Origin: Sphingomonas sp.
GTDB lineage: Bacteria > Pseudomonadota > Alphaproteobacteria > Sphingomonadales > Sphingomonadaceae
Assembly (NCBI RefSeq): GCF_965200105.1
Contig: NZ_CBDATN010000003.1
Location: forward strand, 225,863-289,862
Length of the DNA: 64,000 nucleotides
Reading direction: 5' to 3'
The position numbers were made by a program, and so were the translations under genes. The notes under the pieces were generated by a model, which worked only from the letters and a program-made list of their open reading frames with translations, was not told where the DNA came from and did not search any database. Below are positions 6,477-27,119 of the stretch, in pieces (position 1 is the first letter of the stretch; each line of letters opens with the position of its first letter).

Positions 6477-7160
6477 CTATGCTGCTAGAGCAGCGGCGCC
6501 CGATGGGGCTGCGCCAGCATTTACATCGTCTCCGATCAACAGCCAAGAGGCGATCTTCACACGGAAGGTGTCGTTGAACACCACCTCTGCATCGTTGCCA
6601 GACACGCGATCGACGACGCCATGCAGGCCGGCGAACGCGCCCTCGGTCGGGTGGACCTCAGATCCGACCTGCACTGTGTGACGCTTCGTCTTGAGCATGG
6701 CGCGACGCGCGCGGTCTTCCGCTGCCTGAAGGTGGCCGATCTCCCTGTCCGCCACCACGGGAGCGCGACCGGCGTGCTGGAAGATCGAGAACGCCGGATG
6801 CGGGTTGATCGGAAGCGCGAGCGCGCGGAGCAGGTCATGAAGATGGCTCGCGCGGACGAAGACGAAGCTAGGCACGATCGGCGCCTGCTGCTCGCGATAC
6901 GCCTTTCGCCGGGGCAGTCGGTGGCGAACGGTCTGCTCGGGCGTCCAGGCTTCGATGCCCGCGCGGTTGAGCGATGCAGCCAGCGTAAGCGTCCGGCGGC
7001 TGTTCGTGCGCACGATGCACCAGCCCTCGCCGTCTCTCTCGCGCCGACGTCGGCGGACGTCCGCAAGCCGGGCGTCGCGCACATCCGGGCTGCCCTTGCT
7101 CGCATCGCCGTACCTCGTGTCAGCCTTCCCCATGATCCACCCCGCTACTGTCTTAAGCAT
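6477..7160 (-). CDS. NusG-family transcription antiterminator (NGN + KOW)
   Basis: GWCIVRT, GIEAWTP and PIVPSFVFV NGN motifs; VGSEVHPTEGAFAGLHGVV KOW motif. Confidence 0.8.
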   Translation of the reverse strand: MLKTVAGWIMGKADTRYGDASKGSPDVRDARLADVRRRRRERDGEGWCIVRTNSRRTLTLAASLNRAGIEAWTPEQTVRHRLPRRKAYREQQAPIVPSFVFVRASHLHDLLRALALPINPHPAFSIFQHAGRAPVVADREIGHLQAAEDRARRAMLKTKRHTVQVGSEVHPTEGAFAGLHGVVDRVSGNDAEVVFNDTFRVKIASWLLIGDDVNAGAAPSGAAALAA

Positions 7161-7181
7161 ACCTTGTTCGCTGTGTGTTCG

Positions 7182-11418: not shown

Positions 11419-11612
11419 GGCGCATCACCCTGGCTATGGTGGGAACGATCGCTCAGGCCACAGTCGGTGCGCGTGCACGTCCGAGCATGGCCGGTGTTGG
11501 CGAGGTGGCTGCACCCGGCCGCAGGGCAGACGGCGATGAAGCGGGCGCGCTGGGGCTGTGGCAGCGTGATGGCGGCGCCGGTGAGGACATGCGGGTTGAG
11601 GGCGCCGATCAT
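11415..11612 (-). CDS. Hypothetical Cys-rich small protein
   Basis: ATGA-type overlaps with both neighbours. Confidence 0.4.
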   Translation of the reverse strand: MIGALNPHVLTGAAITLPQPQRARFIAVCPAAGCSHLANTGHARTCTRTDCGLSDRSHHSQGDAP

Positions 11613-11809
11613 GCGGCCGCCTGCTGGGCCGTGGGGCGATACGTCGCCATAAACGTCCGGACACGTTGGATTGTCTTGCGACGCGTTTCTCGCCCTGCGC
11701 GAAGTTGTGCTACGAACATCGTGTCGTTGACGGCGTCCCGCCCGAAACGGCTCTCGCGCATCTGATGAGCAGCGCAGAACGTCTCAATGTCAGAGAGAAG
11801 GTCGTCCAT
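11609..11809 (-). CDS. Cro-like repressor
   Basis: MDDLLSDIETFCAAHQMRESRFGRDAVNDTMFVAQLRAGRE; divergent from an XRE repressor. Confidence 0.8.
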   Translation of the reverse strand: MDDLLSDIETFCAAHQMRESRFGRDAVNDTMFVAQLRAGRETRRKTIQRVRTFMATYRPTAQQAAA

Positions 11810-11814
11810 GCCGA

Positions 11815-11870
11815 AGCTATGCGACGGACATATCCGTCGCGTCAAGTAGTTCGTGACGGATATGTCCGTA
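11815..11870. promoter_or_regulatory. OR-like operators and cro promoter
   Basis: GACGGA-CATA-TCCGTC (11823-11838) and GACGGA-TATG-TCCGTA (11855-11870). Minus-strand TTGACG (11845-11840) and GCATAGCT (11822-11815) flank the first operator. Confidence 0.8.
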
Positions 11871-11908
11871 GATTGTGGCTTGAGGTTGGGGCGTGGGATA
11901 CGCCCGAC

Positions 11909-12358
11909 ATGGATCTGCCGAGGTTCGATCTGTCGACGGTCGTGGCCGTTCTGCGCGAGCGGACCGGCCAAGACGGGCCGTTCTCCATGCGGGGCTTATC
12001 GAAGGCGGCGTGCCAGCACCGCGATACGGTAAGCGACATCATCGCTGGGCGAAACAGAAACCCGACCATCAGGGTACTCTCGGCGCTCGCGGAAGCGATG
12101 GGCGAGGATCTGTCGGTCTTCGGAATCGAGCTTTCCCGGCGGGCTGATGTTCCTACTGAGGCGGAGTTAGAGCAGGCGCTCCGAAGCGCGCTCCCGGATA
12201 TGCCGCGAGGTTCGCCGGACAAACGCGCCCGATTTCTCGCCGAATCCGTAGCACGGCTATTGCAGCTTCCTCCATCTCGTCCAGCCAACGGCGTTGAGCA
12301 ACCAAGTCAAGCGGGCGGTCGCGAAGAAGTCGCTCCTCCTCACGCAGCCACCAGCTGA
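11909..12358 (+). CDS. CI-like XRE-family repressor lacking the S24 peptidase domain
   Basis: FSMRGLSKAACQHRDTVSDIIAGRNRNPTIRVLSALAEAM HTH. 149 aa with no Ser/Lys autocleavage motifs in the C-terminus. Confidence 0.8.
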   Translation: MDLPRFDLSTVVAVLRERTGQDGPFSMRGLSKAACQHRDTVSDIIAGRNRNPTIRVLSALAEAMGEDLSVFGIELSRRADVPTEAELEQALRSALPDMPRGSPDKRARFLAESVARLLQLPPSRPANGVEQPSQAGGREEVAPPHAATS

Positions 12359-12455
12359 GGGTGATCTGCTTGGCAGCGCATTCACGAAAGCACGGCGTGC
12401 AACCGAGGTCGCACGCCGGCTCCGTGAGCGGGGTGTTGCGAGTCGCCCGAGCCAC

Positions 12456-12470
12456 GTTCATCGTATGTTC
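12456..12470 (+). promoter_or_regulatory. Alphaproteobacterial LexA (SOS) box
   Basis: GTTC-ATCGTAT-GTTC is an exact GTTC-N7-GTTC direct repeat, intergenic, and contains a -10-like TATGTT. Confidence 0.7.
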
Positions 12471-12545
12471 TCTGCAATCCAACATGTCTAGGGATTTCCC
12501 TATCGGGCGCGCAGCCGCTCGGCGATGGCTCGCAAGGGATGGCAG

Positions 12546-12728
12546 ATGATCGAGTTCACAGCTTACCGAGGCGGCAGGGTCGCGGTGAACCCCATGCTGG
12601 TGTTCGCGATCGAGGCTGTGCCGGAGGGCGGCACGCAGATCGTGTCGGCCGCTGGCGGTGTCGTCGTCGTGAAGGAGGAGTTCGGCGAGGTGCATCGGCG
12701 GATCGGTGCCTGGGCGAAGAGCGGGTGA
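12546..12728 (+). CDS. 60-aa FlbD/SwrD-like small protein
   Basis: MIEFT...VAVNPMLVFAIEAVPEGGTQIV...VVVKEEFGEVHRRI follows the FlbD pattern (MI.LT...G....N...I..IE..P..T.I....G....VKE...EV). Confidence 0.65.
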   Translation: MIEFTAYRGGRVAVNPMLVFAIEAVPEGGTQIVSAAGGVVVVKEEFGEVHRRIGAWAKSG

Positions 12729-12913
12729 TGCGGTTGGCTAGTCGCAATGGGGGATAAGCTGACTGGGCTCTTATCGATCGGCGCGACGATTCGTCGAGGC
12801 CTGACCCATGTCAGCGAGCTTCTTGGCATCGAGGCTATTGCAAACGCTATGGGTTGTGACGACGCCCTTCATACGGCTCTTTACGGCTATCCGGCATTTC
12901 GGGTTGATAGACG

Positions 12914-14230
12914 CTAGAACGTGCCACGCTGCAAAGCCCTCGCCAGGGTTGATGCCTTCACGCCGGCCTCGCCGATCTGACACTCGACCATCCGCCTGAT
13001 CTCCTCCGCGCTGGTCGCCAGCGGGAACGAGAAGTGCACCAGGTCGCCGAGGTTCACGAGCGTGCCGTAGCGCAGCAGCGCCTTCGCCCGCAGCGTCTCG
13101 AAGTCGTATCCGAACCCGCGCCGGTTGATCTCGTTGATGCGGCCGTTGAGGTTCTCGACCAGCCCGTTCGTGTAGCGGGCCTCGTAGTAGTTGAAGATCG
13201 GGTTGCCCCAGTGGCGCATGAGCGTGATGACCGGTCGGAAGAACCGGCGCAGGTTCGGCGGCATCGTCTCGACCCACCGGAAGTATGCCGCCTCCGCTGC
13301 CCTTCGATCGTCTAGCTCGTACAGGTCGAAGAACTGCTCCTTGGCGGTGTACGCCGCTTTGAGGAACGGGAACTCGCCGAGGATGGCCGCCATCTTATCT
13401 TGGCGTTCATCCGACATGCCGTCCCAGCGCGAGAGGAAGATGCGGTTCTGGCGTCTCAGCTTCCGCCTGTCTTCGTTGCTCAGCGAAGCTGACAACGACT
13501 TGCGGGCCTCGTCCATCGCCTCGTTCGCGTACCTCACGACGTGGAACTTATCGATCACCACGAGGGCCTTCGGCAGGTAGCGGCTCGCCATCTTCTCGTA
13601 CCCGCGCCACATGTCCTGGCAGAACACTTCGACCTTGTTGTACGCTTCGAGACGCTGGAACAGCGGCTCTATACTCGCCGTGTCGCGCTGGGGCAGCATG
13701 TCGAGGATGGTGCCCGCCTCGATGTCGGCGCAGACGAAGCGGTCACCGCCGAGGATGCGGTTCTCGTCCACACCGAACACGCGCGGCGGGGTGAACTCGT
13801 AGTCGAGAAGGCGCTTGCGCGCGTAGGTTAAGAAGATGCGCCGGACCAGCGTCGGCTCGACCGCATGGAAGGTTGCGGCATCCTCGAACGGGCGCTTGAT
13901 CGCGGAGCGCACGATATCGTTCTTCAGCCGCTCCGTGATATAGTGATCGTCATCAACGTGCGGCACCTTCTGGTAGAGCGTGCTGCCGCAGCTCTGGCAT
14001 TTGTACCGCTGCCGGCTGACGACCAGCCACGTCGGCGCGGGCTCGATCCGACGATCACGGTAGCGCACCTGTTTCGTGCCGTTCTTCACCAGCTTGCGGG
14101 CAAGGCAACACAGGTCAATGTCGAGGCGAGTCGGCGCGCAGTGGACCAGGACCTCCGCAAGGTCGCCCTGGTCGTCGTGGACCAGTTTCGGTCGCCCCAC
14201 CTCAAAAAGAGGCAGGCGGAGCCAATTCAC
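12914..14230 (-). CDS. ISL3-family transposase
   Basis: RYKCQSC zinc finger; FGVDE, FCQDMW and VIDKFHVV (DDE core); YTNGLVENLNGRINEINRRGFGY. Confidence 0.93.
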   Translation of the reverse strand: MNWLRLPLFEVGRPKLVHDDQGDLAEVLVHCAPTRLDIDLCCLARKLVKNGTKQVRYRDRRIEPAPTWLVVSRQRYKCQSCGSTLYQKVPHVDDDHYITERLKNDIVRSAIKRPFEDAATFHAVEPTLVRRIFLTYARKRLLDYEFTPPRVFGVDENRILGGDRFVCADIEAGTILDMLPQRDTASIEPLFQRLEAYNKVEVFCQDMWRGYEKMASRYLPKALVVIDKFHVVRYANEAMDEARKSLSASLSNEDRRKLRRQNRIFLSRWDGMSDERQDKMAAILGEFPFLKAAYTAKEQFFDLYELDDRRAAEAAYFRWVETMPPNLRRFFRPVITLMRHWGNPIFNYYEARYTNGLVENLNGRINEINRRGFGYDFETLRAKALLRYGTLVNLGDLVHFSFPLATSAEEIRRMVECQIGEAGVKASTLARALQRGTF

Positions 14231-14478
14231 GTTCGTTTCGCGCGTTCCGCTAGAGCTTTGATCTCTTCGGGTGGTTCACCCCACCAAGTGAACTCGACCG
14301 TTGCGGTGAACCTAGGCGGTTCTCGCCGCCAAGGATTGTGTTCGTCAAGGTAATCGGTGGAGATTGTGTGCCCTGGGCTCTCTTGGTGAAAGGCAAACGA
14401 GGACACGAAAGCCTCGCCCTCGAAATCCCGGCGGGGCGCTGGTAGGTCGTTTTCAGCCTCGGTCATGGGTCGCTCCAT
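14227..14478 (-). CDS. 83-aa ORF inside the IS, upstream of the transposase
   Basis: Lies within the IRs; its stop overlaps the transposase GTG (GTGA). Confidence 0.55.
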   Translation of the reverse strand: MERPMTEAENDLPAPRRDFEGEAFVSSFAFHQESPGHTISTDYLDEHNPWRREPPRFTATVEFTWWGEPPEEIKALAERAKRT

Positions 14479-15294
14479 GGTTGCGGTTAGAGCCGGGCGG
14501 GGTTGCCTCCCCGTTCCGGCTCGCCCTTTTATCGCGGTTAGGCAGGACCGTCCACCAACCCCAAACGCGGTAGCCTACGATGCGACGATCCTATCCGCAT
14601 CAACCCCGTTTGCTGGATAGCCCTCTTTACACTAAGGGTAACTTCATCGTCTTTCTGCTCACGAGCCTTGCCCTCAGCTTCATCCGCGATCTCGTGATCG
14701 TCGTGACGGAGCGACCGTGATGGCACTTCGGTCGCACTTTCGCCGTTTTGCACCTGTATGAGCGAGAAGCCATGGTGACCGTTGTAGCCTTCGCTGGCGC
14801 CTATTTTGCCCTCGCGACCGTTCTGGCGGTTGCAGCTACGCGCTACCGGCGTCGCGCTCGGGAGATCGTGGAAGCGATTCTCGCCGAGGCCGGCTCTGAT
14901 CAAGAGCGCGGAATGTTGGAGTTCACGCTGGCTTCATTGAACTCGATGCGTATGGCGCCAGCGGTGACATTGTCGTTCTTACATGGTCTAGTTATTCCAC
15001 GTAGGACGTTGGGAAACCTTGCAAACTCATACCGAGAAGATTGTCCGGTTCTGAGTTGCCATCCACTCCGTCACCAGCTCGCTGAGAGCGTCATGGCTTC
15101 TTATGCTGCGGCAAATCCCATCTTTGGTGTGACCGCTTATCTGGCGCGCTGGCTTTATGCTGCGCGCCTCGTTCACCTGCATCACGCAGCCAAGCCTGCG
15201 ACCGACGTGAGGGTTCTGGCCGCCGCTTGCTGAGTCGGTCTTGCGCACCCTCTCACTCGCCTGCGTAGGCGCCGGCTGATCGCTGCCGCTATCG

Positions 15295-15322
15295 TTGACT
15301 CCCAAGCGCAACCGGTCATTCT
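15295..15322 (+). promoter_or_regulatory. Putative sigma70 promoter of the exported-protein gene
   Basis: TTGACT (15295-15300), then 16 nt, then CATTCT. Confidence 0.4.
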
Positions 15323-15358
15323 CCTGCCGCCAGACAGGGCTGGCTACAGGGGGTTAGT

Positions 15359-16000
15359 ATGATGAGAGTATTGGCCGTCGCGGCGAGCTTCGCAGTGGCT
15401 GTATCCGCGCTTGCGCAGACCGGCTGGACGCAGCAGCCGATCGTGCTTGGCTCCGCCGCTAACACAAGCGTTCTGCGCGCCGGTACGGCGATCCCGATGC
15501 GGACGAGCGAGGAGCTGACGACCAAGGGCAAGGCGCTCCGCGTCGGGCAGCGTTTCAGGATTGAAACCACCGAGCCCGTAACGCTGAACGGCCAGACCGT
15601 GATTCCGGTTGGCACGCCCGGCATGGGCGAGGTCACGTCCGTCCGCAACAAGGGCATGTGGGGCAAGTCCGGCAACATTGAGGCACACGTCCTCTACCTG
15701 CGCGTCGGTGATCGTCAGTTCCGCCTCTCCGGCACCATGAACGATAAGGGCAAGACCGGCACGGCGGGCGTCGTCGGCGCGGTCGCGCTGGTGCCGATTG
15801 CGGGCTTCTTCATGACTGGCACGAGCGCGGCGATCCCGATGGGCGCGCCGGTCAATGCGTTCCTCGACGAGGACGTGCCAGTGCAGTTCGCAGCCGGCGC
15901 GCCTGCCGCGCTTATCACCGTACCGGCACCAACGACGCCGAGCGGCGCGATCGCGCCTTCTGCGATCGGCAAGACCGTAGCGGTCACGCCTAAGCGGTAA
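15359..16000 (+). CDS. Exported protein with signal peptide (VirB10/TrbI-like beta-rich domain)
   Basis: Signal peptide MMRVLAVAASFAVAVSALAQ; AGTAIPMRTSEEL...VGQRF...VIPVGTPGMGEV...GMWGKSG pattern; C-terminal hydrophobic hairpin. Confidence 0.75.
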   Translation: MMRVLAVAASFAVAVSALAQTGWTQQPIVLGSAANTSVLRAGTAIPMRTSEELTTKGKALRVGQRFRIETTEPVTLNGQTVIPVGTPGMGEVTSVRNKGMWGKSGNIEAHVLYLRVGDRQFRLSGTMNDKGKTGTAGVVGAVALVPIAGFFMTGTSAAIPMGAPVNAFLDEDVPVQFAAGAPAALITVPAPTTPSGAIAPSAIGKTVAVTPKR

Positions 16001-16060
16001 TCGACAGGTCCACGCGTCAGCCTGGCGGTAGGGAGTGGACCACCCGAACGACCGCTAGCA

Positions 16061-16087
16061 AGCCCGGCCTGACCCGCCGGGCTTTTT
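16061..16087 (+). terminator. Rho-independent terminator
   Basis: AGCCCGGC-CTGACCC-GCCGGGCT stem-loop followed by a T-run. Confidence 0.8.
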
Positions 16088-16112
16088 GCTACCTCACGCC
16101 CCCCAAACAAAC

Positions 16113-16166
16113 TGACGGACAGCTCCGTCATGCCTGTTGACTGACGGATATATCCGTCGCTATAAC
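16113..16166 (+). promoter_or_regulatory. PL-like early promoter with two OL-like operators
   Basis: GACGGA-CAGC-TCCGTC (16114-16129) and GACGGA-TATA-TCCGTC (16143-16158). TTGACT (16137-16142) and TATAAC (16161-16166) bracket the second operator. Confidence 0.82.
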
Positions 16167-17675: not shown

Positions 17676-17912
17676 ATGAAGAACAAGCTAGCCGACCTGA
17701 ACAACCACCTCTTCGCGCAACTGGAGCGCCTCTCCGAGGAAGGGCTTACCGCCGAGCAGATCGAGCAGGAGTCCACCCGCGCCGACGCGATTGTCGCGCT
17801 ATCGGATCAGGTGCTTCGGAACGCCGACCTCCAGCTTAAGGCGGTGACGATCCTCGCCAATCACGGCGATCGCTTCATCCCGATGCTGCCCATGATCGGC
17901 AAGTCCGAGTGA
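17676..17912 (+). CDS. Conserved phage protein (partner of the downstream HNH gene)
   Basis: MKNKLADLNNHLFAQLERL...RADAIVALSDQV motif. Confidence 0.75.
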   Translation: MKNKLADLNNHLFAQLERLSEEGLTAEQIEQESTRADAIVALSDQVLRNADLQLKAVTILANHGDRFIPMLPMIGKSE

Positions 17913-20242: not shown

Positions 20243-20484
20243 GCGCCGCCGAGAAGCTCGACGAGCGCCTCCCGTTCTGGCCTGTCGCAATGGCCCGGCC
20301 GATGGCGCTCGCCTACACCGGCGTCAGCGAAGCGCAGATGCGTGCATGGGAGAAGACTGGGCTCGTCCATTTCCGCACGCGCGGTCCACACGGCGCCGCG
20401 ATCGTCCAGCGTGCCGAACTCGACATGGCGGTCGCGGACCTCTTCTCGCGCGATCTCTCCGAGGATCTCGACTTTGGCGACTGA
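20239..20484 (+). CDS. Putative excisionase (winged-HTH)
   Basis: MARPMALAYTGVSEAQMRAWEKTG HTH; immediately upstream of and overlapping the integrase. Confidence 0.65.
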   Translation: MSAAEKLDERLPFWPVAMARPMALAYTGVSEAQMRAWEKTGLVHFRTRGPHGAAIVQRAELDMAVADLFSRDLSEDLDFGD

Positions 20485-21742
20485 GCGCCTCCCGTCCTAC
20501 GTGAACGTGCGGCGCCTCGCCGGCGGCAAGCGGGCCTATTACTGGATCCGCCCGGCCTGGGCGGACCCGCGGCTCGCCGACGCCAAGGATGAGAAAGTCC
20601 GCGCCCGCGCTGTCCGCCATGGCCGCACATGCCCGGTCATCTCCACCGCGCTCGGCACCGAGCTGTCCGCCGCGATCGCCAAGGCCGACGTCCTCAACGC
20701 CACCTTCGCCGAGTGGCGGGAGGGCTCGCCGGAGAAGCCGACCACCGGCACGATCCGCTGGCTGTTCGACTGGTATCGGCGCCACGAGCGCTTCACCGGC
20801 CTACGGCACGCCAGCCGCGCCGGCTACCGGATCGCGATGGATGCGGTCGACGCGATCGAGATGCGCACCGGCACCTTCGGCCTGCGCCAGGCGGCCGCCG
20901 TCGACGCTGCCGCAGCGGATACCCTCTACCGCAAGGCGCGCGAGAAACACGGCGAGCGCCAGGGCGCCTACATGATGCAGGTCTGCCGCCTCGTGTGGAA
21001 CCAGGCCGTCCGCTACGGCAAGGCCACCGGCGTCAAGGCGAACCCGTTCTCGGGCATGGGGATCAAGGCGAGTTCGGGCGCCGGTCGCGGCAACCGCGCG
21101 GCGACACGCGCGGAGTACGACGCGTACCGGGCGAAGGCGCGCGAGCTGGGCCGGCAGAGCATGGCGACCGCGGCGGCGCTGTGCTTCGAGGGCTGTCAGC
21201 GCGTGACGGACGCCTTCGGCTTCGTCGATCCCGACGGCCACGAGCGCGGCATCCGGTGGAGTGGCTACCGCCCCGGCGGCGAGCTGCGGCTGATTCAGTC
21301 CAAGACGGGCAACGCCGTCGAGATACCGCTCACCGACACGATCGGCGGCGAGGTCGTCGCGCTCTACCCGGAGCTGGAGGAGGAGATGGCGCGCACCGAC
21401 CGGCCGGACGATCCGGAGGCGATGATCGTCCGCGATGAGCGCACGGGGCAGCCCTACACCAGCGGCTACGCGAAGACGCTGCACCGGCGCATCCGCGATG
21501 CCGCCGGCCTACCGAAGGATCTGCGCTTCACAAGCTTCCGGCATGGCGGGCTGACCGAGATCGGAGACAGCGGCGAGGCCGACGTGCGCGCGATCAGCGG
21601 ACACAGCACGCTTGAGGTCACGCGGATCTACAACAAGGCGAACACCGAGAAGGCGAAGCGGATCGCGGCCGCGCGGCGCGAGCATATCGGGCGGCTGACT
21701 GCGGGCGCAGAAGAGGCTGCGGAGGCCGAGCCGGCCTTATGA
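20474..21742 (+). CDS. Tyrosine recombinase/integrase
   Basis: TTG start (LATERLPSYVNVRR). Catalytic-type residues: CQR, QSKT, TSFRH, SGH and RIY. Adjacent to att. Confidence 0.9.
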   Translation: MATERLPSYVNVRRLAGGKRAYYWIRPAWADPRLADAKDEKVRARAVRHGRTCPVISTALGTELSAAIAKADVLNATFAEWREGSPEKPTTGTIRWLFDWYRRHERFTGLRHASRAGYRIAMDAVDAIEMRTGTFGLRQAAAVDAAAADTLYRKAREKHGERQGAYMMQVCRLVWNQAVRYGKATGVKANPFSGMGIKASSGAGRGNRAATRAEYDAYRAKARELGRQSMATAAALCFEGCQRVTDAFGFVDPDGHERGIRWSGYRPGGELRLIQSKTGNAVEIPLTDTIGGEVVALYPELEEEMARTDRPDDPEAMIVRDERTGQPYTSGYAKTLHRRIRDAAGLPKDLRFTSFRHGGLTEIGDSGEADVRAISGHSTLEVTRIYNKANTEKAKRIAAARREHIGRLTAGAEEAAEAEPAL

Positions 21743-23609: not shown

Positions 23610-26600
23610 TCAGCCGACCAACGCCAGCGCGACCAACGGCGCGAGCCGCGCGGAGGCGATGCCGGGCAGCCGCTCGATCCGCGCGACGATCTCCGCGTCG
23701 ATCATGAAGTCGCGCCCGGCCAGCACCTCGGCACCCGATCCGGCATGGACGTGCAGCTCGCCGCGCCCACCCCGACATCCCCCGAGCATCGCCGCGAGCG
23801 CGTGGACCGCGGACGCCTCCTCGCACGCGACGTCGAGCCGCAGCCGGGTCGCCATCGTCATGCCCTCCAGCGGGCGGATGGCGCGCACCGTCACGCGCGG
23901 CTGCTCGTCCTCGCCCCGCCGATCGAGCTCGACCGTCAGCAGGCCGCAGCCGCCGACGCGCGCCGCCTCCTCCAGCTTGGCGGACACCTCGTCGTCGAAG
24001 CAGCTCGCCATATACTGGCCCGACGCGTCCGAGCAGGTGGCGAGCAGGTAGCGCCGGCCCTTCGCCGAGGTGCGCCAGCGCGCCTCCTCGACCAGCGCGG
24101 TCATCGCGCAGGTGGGCGCGGGCGCGCGGCGGCCGCGCTCGTCGGGCGGCGGTGCCGCGGGCAGCGGCTGCGCGCACCACTCGCTCCACGTCCGCGCGCC
24201 GTGCGCCTGCGCGATGTGGCGATAGCGATCGGTCGGGTGCGCGGAGAAGTAGAAGCCGAACGCCTCCTTCTCCGCCGCCATCGTCTCGGCGAGCGACCAG
24301 TGCGCGTCGCCCAGGCGGATCGGCGCGACGCCTCCTCCTTCGCCCCCGAACAGGCCGCCCTGCCCGCTCGTCCGCGCGGCCTCCGCGCTCGCCGCGTGCG
24401 CGAGGATCGTCTCCGCGGCGGCGTGGACGCGCGCGCGCTCGGGCACCAGCGGCGCGAACGCGCCGGCGGCGGCCAGGCTCTCGATCTGGCGGCGGTTGAG
24501 CGTCCGCGCGTCGATCCGATCGGCGAAGTCCTCGATGCTGCGAAAGGCCCCGCGCGCCGCGCGGTCGGCGACCAGCTCCGCCATCGCGCGCTCGCCCACG
24601 CCCTTCAGCGCGCCGAGCGCGTAGCGGACGGCGAGGCCGCCGCCATGCGCCTCGACCGTGAAGTCGGCGGCGCTCTCCGCGATCGACGGCGGCAGGCAGG
24701 TGACGCCCATCCGCCGCATGTCGTCGGCGAAGACGCAGAGCTTGTCCGTCTGCCCGACGTCGAAGCACATCGAGGCGGCGTAGAACTCGTGCGGGTGGTG
24801 CGCCTTCAGCCACGCCGTCTGATAGGTGAGCAGCGCGTAGGCCGCCGCGTGGCTCTTGTTGAAGCCGTAGCCCGCGAACTTGTCGATGAGGTCGAACAGC
24901 GAATTGGCCTGGGCGGCGGGAATGGCGTTGGCCCTGGCGCAACCCTCCACGAAGGTGGCGCGCTGCGCATCCATCTCCGCCTTGATCTTCTTGCCCATCG
25001 CGCGCCTGAGCAGGTCGGCGCCGCCCAGCGTGTAGCCGGCGAGCACCTGCGCCGCCTGCATCACCTGTTCCTGATAGACGAAGATGCCGTAGGTCTCGGC
25101 GAGAATGCCTTTCAGCAGCGGGTGCGGATACTCGATCGGCGCCTGCCCGTTCTTGCGCTGGCCGAACAGCGGGATGTTGTCCATCGGCCCTGGCCGGTAG
25201 AGCGCGCCGAGCGCGATGATGTCCTCGAACACTGTCGGCTTCACCGCCGACAGCGTGCGGCGCATGCCCTCCGACTCGACCTGGAACACGCCCACCGTGT
25301 TGCCCGATTGGAGCAGCGCGTAGGTCTTCCCGTCGTCCCACGGCAGGCCCGCGAGATCGATCTCGATCCCCCTCGCGCGGAGCATCTCCACCGCGCGATG
25401 GAGCACCGACAGCGTCTTGAGGCCCAGAAAGTCGAACTTCACCAACCCCGCATCCTCGACATGCTTCATGTCGAACTGAGTGACGGGCATGTCCGATCGC
25501 GGATCGCGGTAGAGCGGCACGAGCTTGTCGAGCGCGCGGTCGCCGATCACGACGCCGGCGGCGTGGGTGGACGAGTGGCGCGGCAGGCCCTCCAGCTTCA
25601 TGGCGAGGTCGAACAGCCGCTTCACCTGCGGCTCGCGCCTCACCTCCTGCGCGAGCTCCGCCACGCCGTCCAGCGCGCGCTTGAGCGTCCACGGATCGGT
25701 CGGGTGGTTGGGCACCAGCTTGGCCAGCCGATCGACCTGCCCGTAGCTCATCTGGAGCACGCGGCCGGTATCCTTCAGCACCGCGCGCGCCTTCAGCCGC
25801 CCGAAGGTGATGATCTGCGCCACCTGCGCGCGGCCGTACTTGGCCTGGACGTAGCGGATCACCTCCTCGCGCCGCGTCTCGCAGAAATCGATGTCGAAGT
25901 CCGGCATCGACACGCGCTCGGGGTTGAGGAAACGCTCGAACAGCAGGCCGAGCCGTAGCGGGTCGAGATCGGTGATGGTGAGCGCCCAGGCGACCACCGA
26001 TCCCGCGCCCGAACCGCGGCCGGGGCCGACCGGAATATCCTGCTCCTTCGCCCACTTGATGAAATCGGCGACGATCAGGAAATAGCCGGGGAAGCCCATC
26101 TGGACGATGACGTCCGTCTCGAAGTCCAGCCGCTCGAAATAGGGCGCGAACGCCTCCTCGATCGTCTTTTCGGCGTCGCGCGGATAGCGTTGCAGCCGCG
26201 CGATCAGGCCGGCGTGCGCGTCGCGCCGCAGCGCCGCCGCCTCGCCCTCGCGGTCGCCGGCCAGGCTGGGCAGGATGGGCTTGCGCTTGGGCGCGGCGAA
26301 GGCGGTGCGCTGGGCAACGACGGCGGTGTTGGCGATCGCCTCGGGCAGGTCGGCGAACAGGCGCGCCATCTCGTCGGCGGGCTTGAGCCAGTCCTCGGGG
26401 CAGGAGCGGCGCCGCTCCTCGCTCTCGACATAGGCGGAGCCGGCGATGCACAGCATGGCATCGTGCGCGGCATGGAAATGCGGCTCCGCGAAGCAGGCCG
26501 GGTTGGTGGCGACGAGCGGCAGGTCGGCCGCGTAGGCATGCTCGACGAGCGCCGCCTCGGCCGCCTCCTCGATCGCGTCGCCGCGCCGCGCGAGCTCGAC

Positions 26601-27119
26601 ATAGAGGCGGCCCGGGAACAGCGACGCCAGCCTCTCCGCGTAGCGTTCGGCATGCTCCACCTGCCCGTTCGCGAAGAGCCGCGCGAGCGCGCCGTCGCCG
26701 GCGCCGGTGAGCGCGATCAGCCCCGCCGTCCGGCCCTCCAGCGCGTCGAGCGCGACGTGCGCGTCCTCCTCCGCCGGCCGGCCGAGATGCGCGTGGCTGA
26801 CGAGCGCGCACAGCGCCTGATACCCCGCCTCGTCCTGCGCGTAGAGCGGCAGCCAGTCGATCGTCGGAGATTTGCCCGGCTCCGCACCGCCGCAGTCGCC
26901 GGGCCGCGCCACGCCCAGCAGCGTGCCGACGATCGGCTGCACGCCCTCCGCCTTCGCCGCCGCGCCGAACGCCATCGCCGCGTACAGCCCGTTCCGGTCG
27001 CAGATCGCGGCGGCCGGCATGCCGAGCCCGGCGGCATGCTTGGCGAGCGCCTTGGGATCGATCGCGCCTTCCAGCATCGTGAAGGCGGTGAACACGCGCA
27101 GTGGCACGAAAGGAGTCAT
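23610..27119 (-). CDS. dnaE: DNA polymerase III subunit alpha
   Basis: PHP domain, [43 protein letters not shown]. Confidence 0.97.

Follow-up and report, generated by a model that had tools for sequence, protein, structure and literature searches.

Damage sensing by prophages with non-cleavable repressors is known for a few enterobacterial phages. In Gifsy (GfoA, GftA and GfhA), 186 (Tum) and N15 (AntC), antirepressors under LexA control act on small repressors that are not cleaved themselves (PMC3121763), a precedent that the first-pass annotation of the present DNA had cited. The DNA is a 64-kb window of a Sphingomonas sp. genome ("the window" being the whole stretch that was analysed; G+C content 70%), of which the left 22 kb are a prophage. 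The region discussed here is the immunity module of this Sphingomonas-type temperate phage. It contains the repressor gene cI, a previously unannotated gene on the opposite strand, which we call orfX, a GTTC-N7-GTTC box of the LexA type, a palindrome and a gene for an FlbD/SwrD-like protein. We lean towards the view that orfX is repressed by LexA and that, upon DNA damage, an antirepressor, antisense transcription against cI, or both are released. The SOS-driven switch that had been proposed for this locus thereby keeps its likely link to the SOS response, but the gene that had been named for it, the FlbD-like one, was very probably the wrong one: the box holds its position relative to orfX.

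orfX, a gene antisense to the repressor gene

The first-pass annotation had described a repressor of 149 amino acids (aa) without an S24 domain, followed by a hairpin, an exact box, a palindrome and an open reading frame (ORF) of 60 codons. All of these are present where it had placed them, and no S24 peptidase (autocleavage) domain was found in CI with Pfam. The main elements of the locus are:

11909 (ATG)-12358 (stop), plus strand: cI-type immunity repressor gene, 149 aa, with Pfam HTH_3 (residues 26-70) as the only domain
12153-12461, minus strand: orfX, unannotated, 102 aa from the ATG at 12461; in the alignment, the ATG of the relatives corresponds to the GTG at 12455
12393-12418: hairpin CGGCGTGC/GCACGCCG, inside the codons of the orfX cysteine motif
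12456-12470, plus strand: LexA-type operator GTTCATCGTATGTTC, an exact GTTC-N7-GTTC, which reads GAAC-N7-GAAC on the orfX strand
12489-12502: 14-bp palindrome TAGGGATTTCCCTA, unique in the window
12546-12728, plus strand: FlbD/SwrD-like gene, 60 aa, with PF06289 above the Pfam threshold

The segment 12359-12461 is the 5' part of the conserved minus-strand gene orfX and is not intergenic. orfX is convergent with cI, and 206 nt (12153-12358) are common to it and the 3' end of cI. For the coding tests, the window was aligned with its closest relative, L001, a 21-kb contig of the Joint Genome Institute (JGI) that carries cI, an FlbD-like gene, a Panacea-domain gene, a Ros/MucR gene and, at the far end, an integrase gene, and the substitutions were counted per codon position. 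In the cI frame the counts for positions 1, 2 and 3 are 14, 11 and 58 over 11909-12255; selection in this frame is seen only up to about 12255, and about 115 of the 149 residues are under selection. Over 12256-12455 the counts in the orfX frame are 10, 8 and 25 (P=7e-4), and the frame under selection switches from cI to orfX at about 12255. The sole indel relative to L001 in the supposed spacer is of 3 nt and is in frame for orfX. Because of this switch of frame, the in-frame indel and the residues that are invariant across 16 lineages, orfX is a protein-coding gene; since its protein sequence is under selection, it does not act as RNA only. Each of the two genes has a poorly conserved C-terminal tail (about 35-40 residues) opposite the conserved part of the other.

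The product of orfX, MNVARATRNTPLTEPACDLGCTPCFRECAAKQITLSWWLREEERLLRD..., is marked by an invariant C-x3-C-x2-C-x3-C motif together with WW-REEERLL; the four cysteines, W38, E41, E43 and L45 are the same in all 16 lineages. The relatives were found by tblastn and form 16 independent lineages, with identities down to about 30%. They occur on every contig with a homologue of CI (L007, L009 and L010; the CI homologues are P0005-P0011), on 12 further metagenome contigs and in two genomes, Sphingomonas colocasiae JCM 31229 and Sphingomonas sp. PP-CC-1A-547. Scans of viral contigs with the FlbD-like, orfX and CI queries returned only the L001 contig or one unrelated context. No entry for orfX was found among 5.8 billion protein clusters, the window's own genome included; the gene illustrates how gene callers miss functional genes that are short when the genome is rich in G+C. 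Pfam, PHROGs, PDB sequences, Foldseek-PDB and INPHARED (cultured phages) gave no informative match. A single-sequence AlphaFold2 (AF2) model shows a helical hairpin, with a predicted local distance difference test (pLDDT) score of 72, and Foldseek found no structural neighbour for it.

In L019-L022 the partner of orfX is a different repressor, an XRE protein of 182-188 aa, and the two genes are still convergent and overlapping. The overlap is kept despite the change of repressor family and is therefore itself conserved, an indication that orfX and the repressor are functionally linked.

The hairpin is stable in the window, with RNA free energies (dG) of -22.4 on the plus strand (z -2.6) and -28.5 on the minus strand (z -4.7), but it is not conserved, being absent from L001 (z +0.7). 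As a terminator of cI it was considered and rejected, since there is no T-run, the hairpin falls within orfX and the closest relative is without it.

The LexA-type box and the palindrome at the start of orfX

The box abuts or overlaps the start of orfX, GTTCAT being the reverse complement of ATGAAC. In the window alone, GTTC-N7-GTTC is not more frequent than expected by chance (2 matches, 1.05 expected), and the box was therefore judged by comparison with the relatives. The exact box is found at the homologous place in 15 of the 16 lineages, and L001 has it at the same place with one mismatch. The exact boxes lie at most 112 nt upstream of the orfX cysteine motif in these 15 lineages, mostly 0-30 nt from the start codon, and 15 of the 19 exact boxes in 152 kb of loci stand at the orfX start position. 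The tetramers are invariant, while the spacers differ between lineages.

The same motif is the published SOS box of Caulobacter (PMC9578287, PMC12700426). We built a position weight matrix (PWM) from 32 Caulobacter LexA boxes supported by chromatin immunoprecipitation (ChIP; supplement S6 of PMC12700426). With this matrix, the window box is the best of 127,972 15-mers, at 18.3 bits. The phage boxes score 15.7-24.6 bits and the Caulobacter sites 14.4-25.7 bits, on a matrix that is that of Caulobacter and may not be that of Sphingomonas. Scored on the spacer only, the phage boxes have a mean of +4.2 against -5.3 (standard deviation 3.9) for random spacers, and they match the T-rich preference of the ChIP-validated sites. 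The position next to a start codon also has parallels: several SOS boxes in the Caulobacter site table lie at a distance of 0, 1, 2 or -6 from a coding sequence (PMC12700426), and three of these start-adjoining boxes begin with GTTCAT, the same geometry as in orfX of the window. The carriers of the box include Sphingomonas genomes, which belong to the Alphaproteobacteria. The earlier identification of the box as a LexA site thus agrees with its conservation and with its Caulobacter-like score, and GTTC-N7-GTTC at 12456-12470 is very probably a functional LexA operator.

Instead of binding LexA, the GAAC repeats could be the site of a phage protein or a part of the ribosome-binding or leader region of orfX. 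The box does stand at the place of a Shine-Dalgarno sequence, often ending in GGAAC or GGAGAAC, the LexA motif is assumed from the bacterial class, and binding of LexA to the box is predicted only. The exact 4+7+4 geometry and the T-rich spacers, however, are those of ChIP-validated LexA sites. One lineage, L016-L018, has the box in inverted orientation and about 70 nt away from the orfX start on the upstream side, beyond the palindrome, which argues against a role in ribosome binding. An independent second box, described below, lies 33 nt upstream of another gene. Taken together, it is highly improbable that the repeats are anything other than LexA sites.

The palindrome is kept as TAGG-N6-CCTA, with A/T-rich N6, in most lineages and occurs twice in L015, L022 and L023. 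Its centre lies about 34-41 nt upstream of the orfX start, in several lineages about 40 nt. It shares the form xxGG-N6-CCxx with the CI operators (ACGG-N6-CCGT) and was on that account considered as a possible weak CI operator, but the specificity bases differ. We infer that the palindrome is a second operator at orfX; if the mRNA leader is short or absent, it would be placed as a class-II activator site or as an operator over the -35 region.

The second exact match to the motif in the window lies in the lytic operon:

7166-7180, plus strand: second GTTC-N7-GTTC, GTTCGCTGTGTGTTC, in a short intergenic gap

It is 33 nt upstream of the conserved ATG (7133) of a minus-strand gene (6477-7160) for a protein like the N-terminal domain (NTD) of NusG. 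The box and the next 45 nt or so are identical in L001 (2696-2710), whereas the neighbouring coding DNA is about 75% identical. Its PWM score, 13.5 bits, is lower than those of the phage boxes at orfX. This box may be an extra, direct SOS gate on a late or antitermination regulator in the lytic operon.

The second box bears on the question of whether orfX is the trigger of induction. orfX could be controlled by LexA and serve as an accessory gene (a division inhibitor, a toxin, a DinI-like modulator or a redox or metal sensor) or as an antisense RNA only, with induction proceeding otherwise, for example through the NusG-like gene under LexA control. The conserved box in front of that gene would fit this, as would the lack of likeness between OrfX and known antirepressors, and LexA-controlled accessory genes are frequent in prophages, the dinI homologues of Gifsy being an example (PMC3121763). 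The overlap of orfX with the repressor gene is, however, kept across repressor families, and selection acts on the OrfX protein and not on an RNA alone. We therefore consider such a bystander role for orfX unlikely.

The FlbD-like gene and the cargo slot

The 60-codon ORF had been called FlbD/SwrD-like, and the family assignment is borne out: PF06289 (FlbD), the only family matched, scores 31.6 bits against a gathering cut-off of 24.7, with residues 1-57 on model positions 1-55 of 59. Compared with L001, the substitutions number 2, 1 and 17 at the three codon positions, so that 17 of 20 fall on third positions. The AF2 model (pLDDT 95.7) has two beta strands, a 3-10 turn, three further strands (beta3-5) and a terminal helix, in the order seen in SwrD crystal structures. 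The SwrD hexamer is built by N15-xxx-L/I19, E23 and P26-D-T (PMC13232269), and the window protein keeps ring-forming residues at these places (N15-xxx-V19, E23 and P26, in P26-E-G-G-T30). Comparison by sequence and fold with a copy of the PDB that is without the SwrD crystal structures gave no significant match, RemA being a weak one at rank 41. The subfamily is rare, with 32 representatives among 1.84 billion proteins, and 25 of the 25 members tested match PF06289; used as a query in the first scan of a genome collection, the protein gave no match. No flagellar genes were found near the gene, which is not in a fla-che operon. The SwrD/FlbD-like fold itself is widespread in phages (BFVD; TM scores of 0.8-0.9), including gp27 of N4 (Enterobacteria), CcrColossus and CcrPW (Caulobacter), Muddy (Mycobacterium) and crAss-like viruses.

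According to the first-pass annotation, the box represses this rightward gene, whose product would be an SOS-induced antirepressor of CI. It is true that the box and the palindrome lie upstream of its ATG, by 76 nt and 44 nt, on the strand of the gene, that purifying selection on the gene is strong, that CI is without a protease domain, and that the rings of SwrD-like proteins are similar to the DNA-binding proteins RemA, ComK and LytTR (PMC13232269). The comparison of lineages nevertheless speaks against it. Of the expected co-occurrence of a protease-less CI, a box and an FlbD-like gene, the first two recur together with orfX, but the third is missing from 13 of the 16 lineages in which CI, orfX, box and palindrome are shared, and only the other 3 have it. 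In the place of the FlbD-like gene there are unrelated membrane or secreted proteins, or nothing, and in L010 the gene for a 172-aa lipoprotein stands between it and the box. FlbD-like genes in other contexts (L003/L004 and L026) are without box, cI and orfX. The fold is also common in obligately lytic phages (N4 gp27, CcrColossus and Muddy), and a fold that is frequent in phages of every lifestyle is a poor fit to a dedicated antirepressor. An antirepressor role of the FlbD-like protein therefore seems most improbable, and this tempting functional assignment is removed from a widespread group of phage proteins.

The setting of the gene becomes clear from the operators of the phage and the genes that they adjoin:

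11609-11812, minus strand: Cro-like gene, 67 aa (from the ORF list), the first of the lytic operon, divergent from cI across the operator region
11823-11838 and 11855-11870: right operator region (OR), two CI-type operators with the inverted repeat GACGGA-N4-TCCGTC, GACGGACATATCCGTC and GACGGATATGTCCGTA, respectively (pattern search)
16114-16166, plus strand: the true left operator and promoter (OL/PL; pattern search), driving the early-left operon through to the integrase gene (20342-21742)
16114-16129 and 16143-16158: OL operators, GACGGACAGCTCCGTC and GACGGATATATCCGTC, respectively
16137-16142 and 16161-16166: PL promoter, TTGACT-N18-TATAAC

The OR operators, which lie between cI and the divergent lytic operon, are invariant in L001 and L002, and their half-sites recur in L007, L009, L010-L014 and L024. 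The arrangement of OL and PL is the same in L001, L007, L009 and L015. The real PL/OL, which was not considered in the first reading, is 3.7 kb to the right of the box region. Since CI-type operators mark it at 16114-16166, the 3.7 kb between the control region of orfX and PL are a cargo slot. In the window, this slot contains, besides the FlbD-like gene:

12484-12549, plus strand: upstream ORF (uORF) of 21 codons, MSRDFPIGRAAARRWLARDGR, whose stop overlaps the FlbD-like ATG (ATGA)
12885-14622, minus strand: ISL3-family insertion sequence, with a transposase gene at 12914-14230 (DDE_Tnp_ISL3, Pfam 4.7e-51)
14748-16090, plus strand: further cargo genes, for a 161-aa protein (14748-15233) and a 213-aa secreted protein (15359-16000)
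about 16062-16090, plus strand: intrinsic terminator at the end of the cargo, before OL/PL

The contents of the slot, in order, are:

Window: 21-codon uORF, FlbD-like gene, ISL3 element, 161-aa protein, 213-aa secreted protein
L001: uORF, FlbD-like gene, Panacea-domain gene
L010: Rap1a-like lipoprotein gene, then FlbD-like gene
L007: gene for a 61-aa membrane protein
L009: lipoprotein gene
L012, L013 and L017: genes for other membrane or secreted proteins
L015: no cargo gene; orfX, box and two palindromes adjoin OL2 and PL

By this comparison, the slot holds cargo genes that replace one another, the FlbD-like gene among them, and that gene would stand outside the switch; its promoter might nonetheless be affected by the same box. 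The FlbD-like and other cargo genes might be co-regulated under SOS control by this box, from a divergent promoter. A stronger version holds that the box serves divergent promoters, or the rightward one only, and that the cargo operon is an SOS-induced accessory (a modifier of motility or flagella, or an exclusion function) that has no part in induction. One LexA site for two divergent genes is a known arrangement, as at uvrA and ssb of E. coli. The box is 13 nt from a conserved start, ATGTCTAGG, in the window, L001, L010 and L012, and the TATGTT within it resembles a -10 element. The distance from the box to the cargo start is, however, not conserved in L007, L009, L013 and L015, most of the cargo consists of membrane or secreted proteins of the "moron" type, whose usual time of expression is the lysogenic state and not the SOS response, and it would be left unexplained why the box tracks orfX. 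A box that serves the cargo operon in this way is accordingly unlikely.

The conserved start has the form ATG(T/G)CTAGG, 13 nt to the right of the box, and opens the uORF of the window, a 29-codon uORF of L001 (9263-9352) and the lipoprotein gene of L010 (2153-2547). The Rap1a-like lipoprotein (172 aa) starts with the same MSR as the uORFs, and all three reading frames close on an ATGA that they share with the start of the FlbD-like gene. The two short uORFs may be what is left of a lipoprotein gene after its deletion, or they may serve as coupling leaders.

The ISL3 element sits 156 nt after the FlbD-like stop and splits a small cargo ORF. It is bounded by 24-bp terminal inverted repeats (GGCTATCCGGCATTTCGGGTTGAT and its imperfect complement) and by an 8-bp target duplication, CTCTTTAC, at 12877-12884 and 14623-14630. 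The element has a second ORF of 83 aa at 14227-14478. Its removal joins a 75-aa plus-strand ORF (MGDKLTG...TALY continuing into TKGNFIVFLL..., with a hydrophobic C-terminus); one minus-strand ORF is joined as well. In another genome, a homologue of the 213-aa protein, P0024, is called as a single protein of 172 aa that has an FlbD-like domain fused to it or directly behind it (63% identity over 81 aa); the gene for the 213-aa protein and the FlbD-like gene therefore travel together elsewhere.

The leftward lytic operon runs from the Cro-like gene, for which only weak PHROG matches were found, through genes for a PHROG-16695 protein, an HNH nuclease, a GapR-like protein, a DUF1643 protein and the NusG-NTD-like protein to those for the terminase (TerL), the portal and an S49 protease (Pfam, PHROG). 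In the early-left operon, a 78-aa protein (17676-17912) matches PHROG 2044, "RNA polymerase beta subunit" (3e-22), and its gene has DUF968/HNH-type genes on either side. A tyrosine integrase gene (466 aa, 20342-21742) closes this operon, which places the right end of the prophage near 21.8-22.3 kb. Beyond it are chromosomal genes, including one for a 1169-aa DnaE-type polymerase on the minus strand (23610-27119). No tRNA genes were found across the whole window.

Short contigs from two lichen metagenome runs (X3 and X4) are identical, with zero differences, to 12325-12569 of the window, the region of the box and the palindrome, and in run X2, a second sample of the same organism, only about half of this region is present. 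A search for RNA runs of this organism found none; the contigs of four sequencing runs, the two lichen metagenomes among them, show the presence of the region only. It appears that the phage, or else its host, lives in association with lichens.

The proposed switch and its relation to known systems

As discussed above, we lean towards orfX as the LexA-controlled gene of the module. CI, which has a helix-turn-helix domain only and is without self-cleavage, would hold OR (11823-11870) and OL/PL (16114-16166) shut. The control region of orfX would consist of the palindrome at about -40 and of an operator for the host LexA over the -10 and start region, so that in the lysogen LexA would keep orfX silent. 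Upon DNA damage, active RecA would bring about the self-cleavage of LexA, and orfX would be transcribed. CI would then be inactivated by the OrfX protein, an antirepressor, and antisense transcription into cI would, alongside this or in its place, lower the synthesis of CI. By either route the lytic operon would open. Late transcription may also be gated by SOS directly, through the second LexA-like box before the NusG-like gene. A small gene that is under SOS control and next to a repressor that cannot be cleaved would be the most economical route of induction.

Several points weigh against this proposal. LexA binding, the gene that the box controls, and the antirepressor or antisense action of orfX are all inferred from sequence only. 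GTTC-N7-GTTC as the LexA motif of Sphingomonas is carried over from Caulobacter and from the alphaproteobacterial class. A scan for sigma-70 promoters over 11500-12900, on both strands, found none that is recognisable, promoter candidates picked out by eye were too weak to count, and the direction of control by the box is therefore read from its position and conservation only. The inverted, distant box of L016-L018 departs from the common arrangement. OrfX has no homology in sequence or fold to known antirepressors, and its single-sequence model is of moderate confidence only. The length of the orfX ORF across the cI overlap could be partly a by-product of high G+C content, as selection is seen only over the first 65-70 codons.

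A more specific version of the switch is possible and is put forward tentatively. OrfX would be a new SOS-released antirepressor, a helical hairpin whose four cysteines (Cys4) bind a metal or an Fe-S cluster; CI would be attacked by this protein together with convergent, antisense transcription; the palindrome would provide a second input, through an activator at about -41 or a co-repressor; and the module would be a common switch of a group of Sphingomonadaceae prophages.

If true, a conserved LexA-boxed gene antisense over the repressor gene would be a compact and testable switch. For an alphaproteobacterial counterpart of the enterobacterial systems, nothing relevant was found in the literature searched and no match among 50,697 sequenced phages. 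Sphingomonas colocasiae JCM 31229, which carries the module, is a culture-collection strain.

The closest parallels are 186 Tum, Gifsy and N15. What is shared with them is a small helix-turn-helix repressor without a Ser/Lys cleavage domain and a LexA operator before a small phage gene, here orfX. In those phages, however, the antirepressor genes lie outside the immunity region, whereas orfX lies inside it and is convergent with cI, with an overlap of about 200 nt that brings in antisense action and transcriptional interference as further possibilities. OrfX, with its invariant Cys4 motif, has no similarity in sequence or fold to Tum, Gfo or AntC. Upstream of orfX there is a further conserved operator, the palindrome, and both the host and the operator type, a direct repeat, are alphaproteobacterial. 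The orfX module would thus resemble these systems in its working at most, and it is not a member of their family.

The orfX transcript would run antisense into the 3' end of a lysogeny gene, a likeness to lambda OOP and to the pR/pL interference of 186. The oop promoter of lambda has been reported to be LexA-sensitive. OOP is a short antisense RNA into the 3' end of cII (PMC2327240), whereas orfX encodes a conserved protein, its target would be the gene of the maintenance repressor, and the case here is known from sequence alone.

The cargo slot, in turn, is comparable to the rexAB "moron" slot of lambda, in that variable accessory genes, bounded by a terminator, lie between the repressor gene and OL/PL. 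Its contents (the FlbD-like protein, a Panacea-domain protein, a Rap1a-like lipoprotein and small membrane or secreted proteins) are unrelated to rex, and it is entered from a control region with a LexA box and a palindrome. Within it, the FlbD-like protein resembles SwrD/FlbD (PF06289), a flagellar swarming factor of Bacillus and spirochaetes, in score, topology and hexamer motifs; the window gene, however, belongs to an alphaproteobacterial prophage, while the Pfam members are mostly from Bacillota, Actinomycetota and Spirochaetota.

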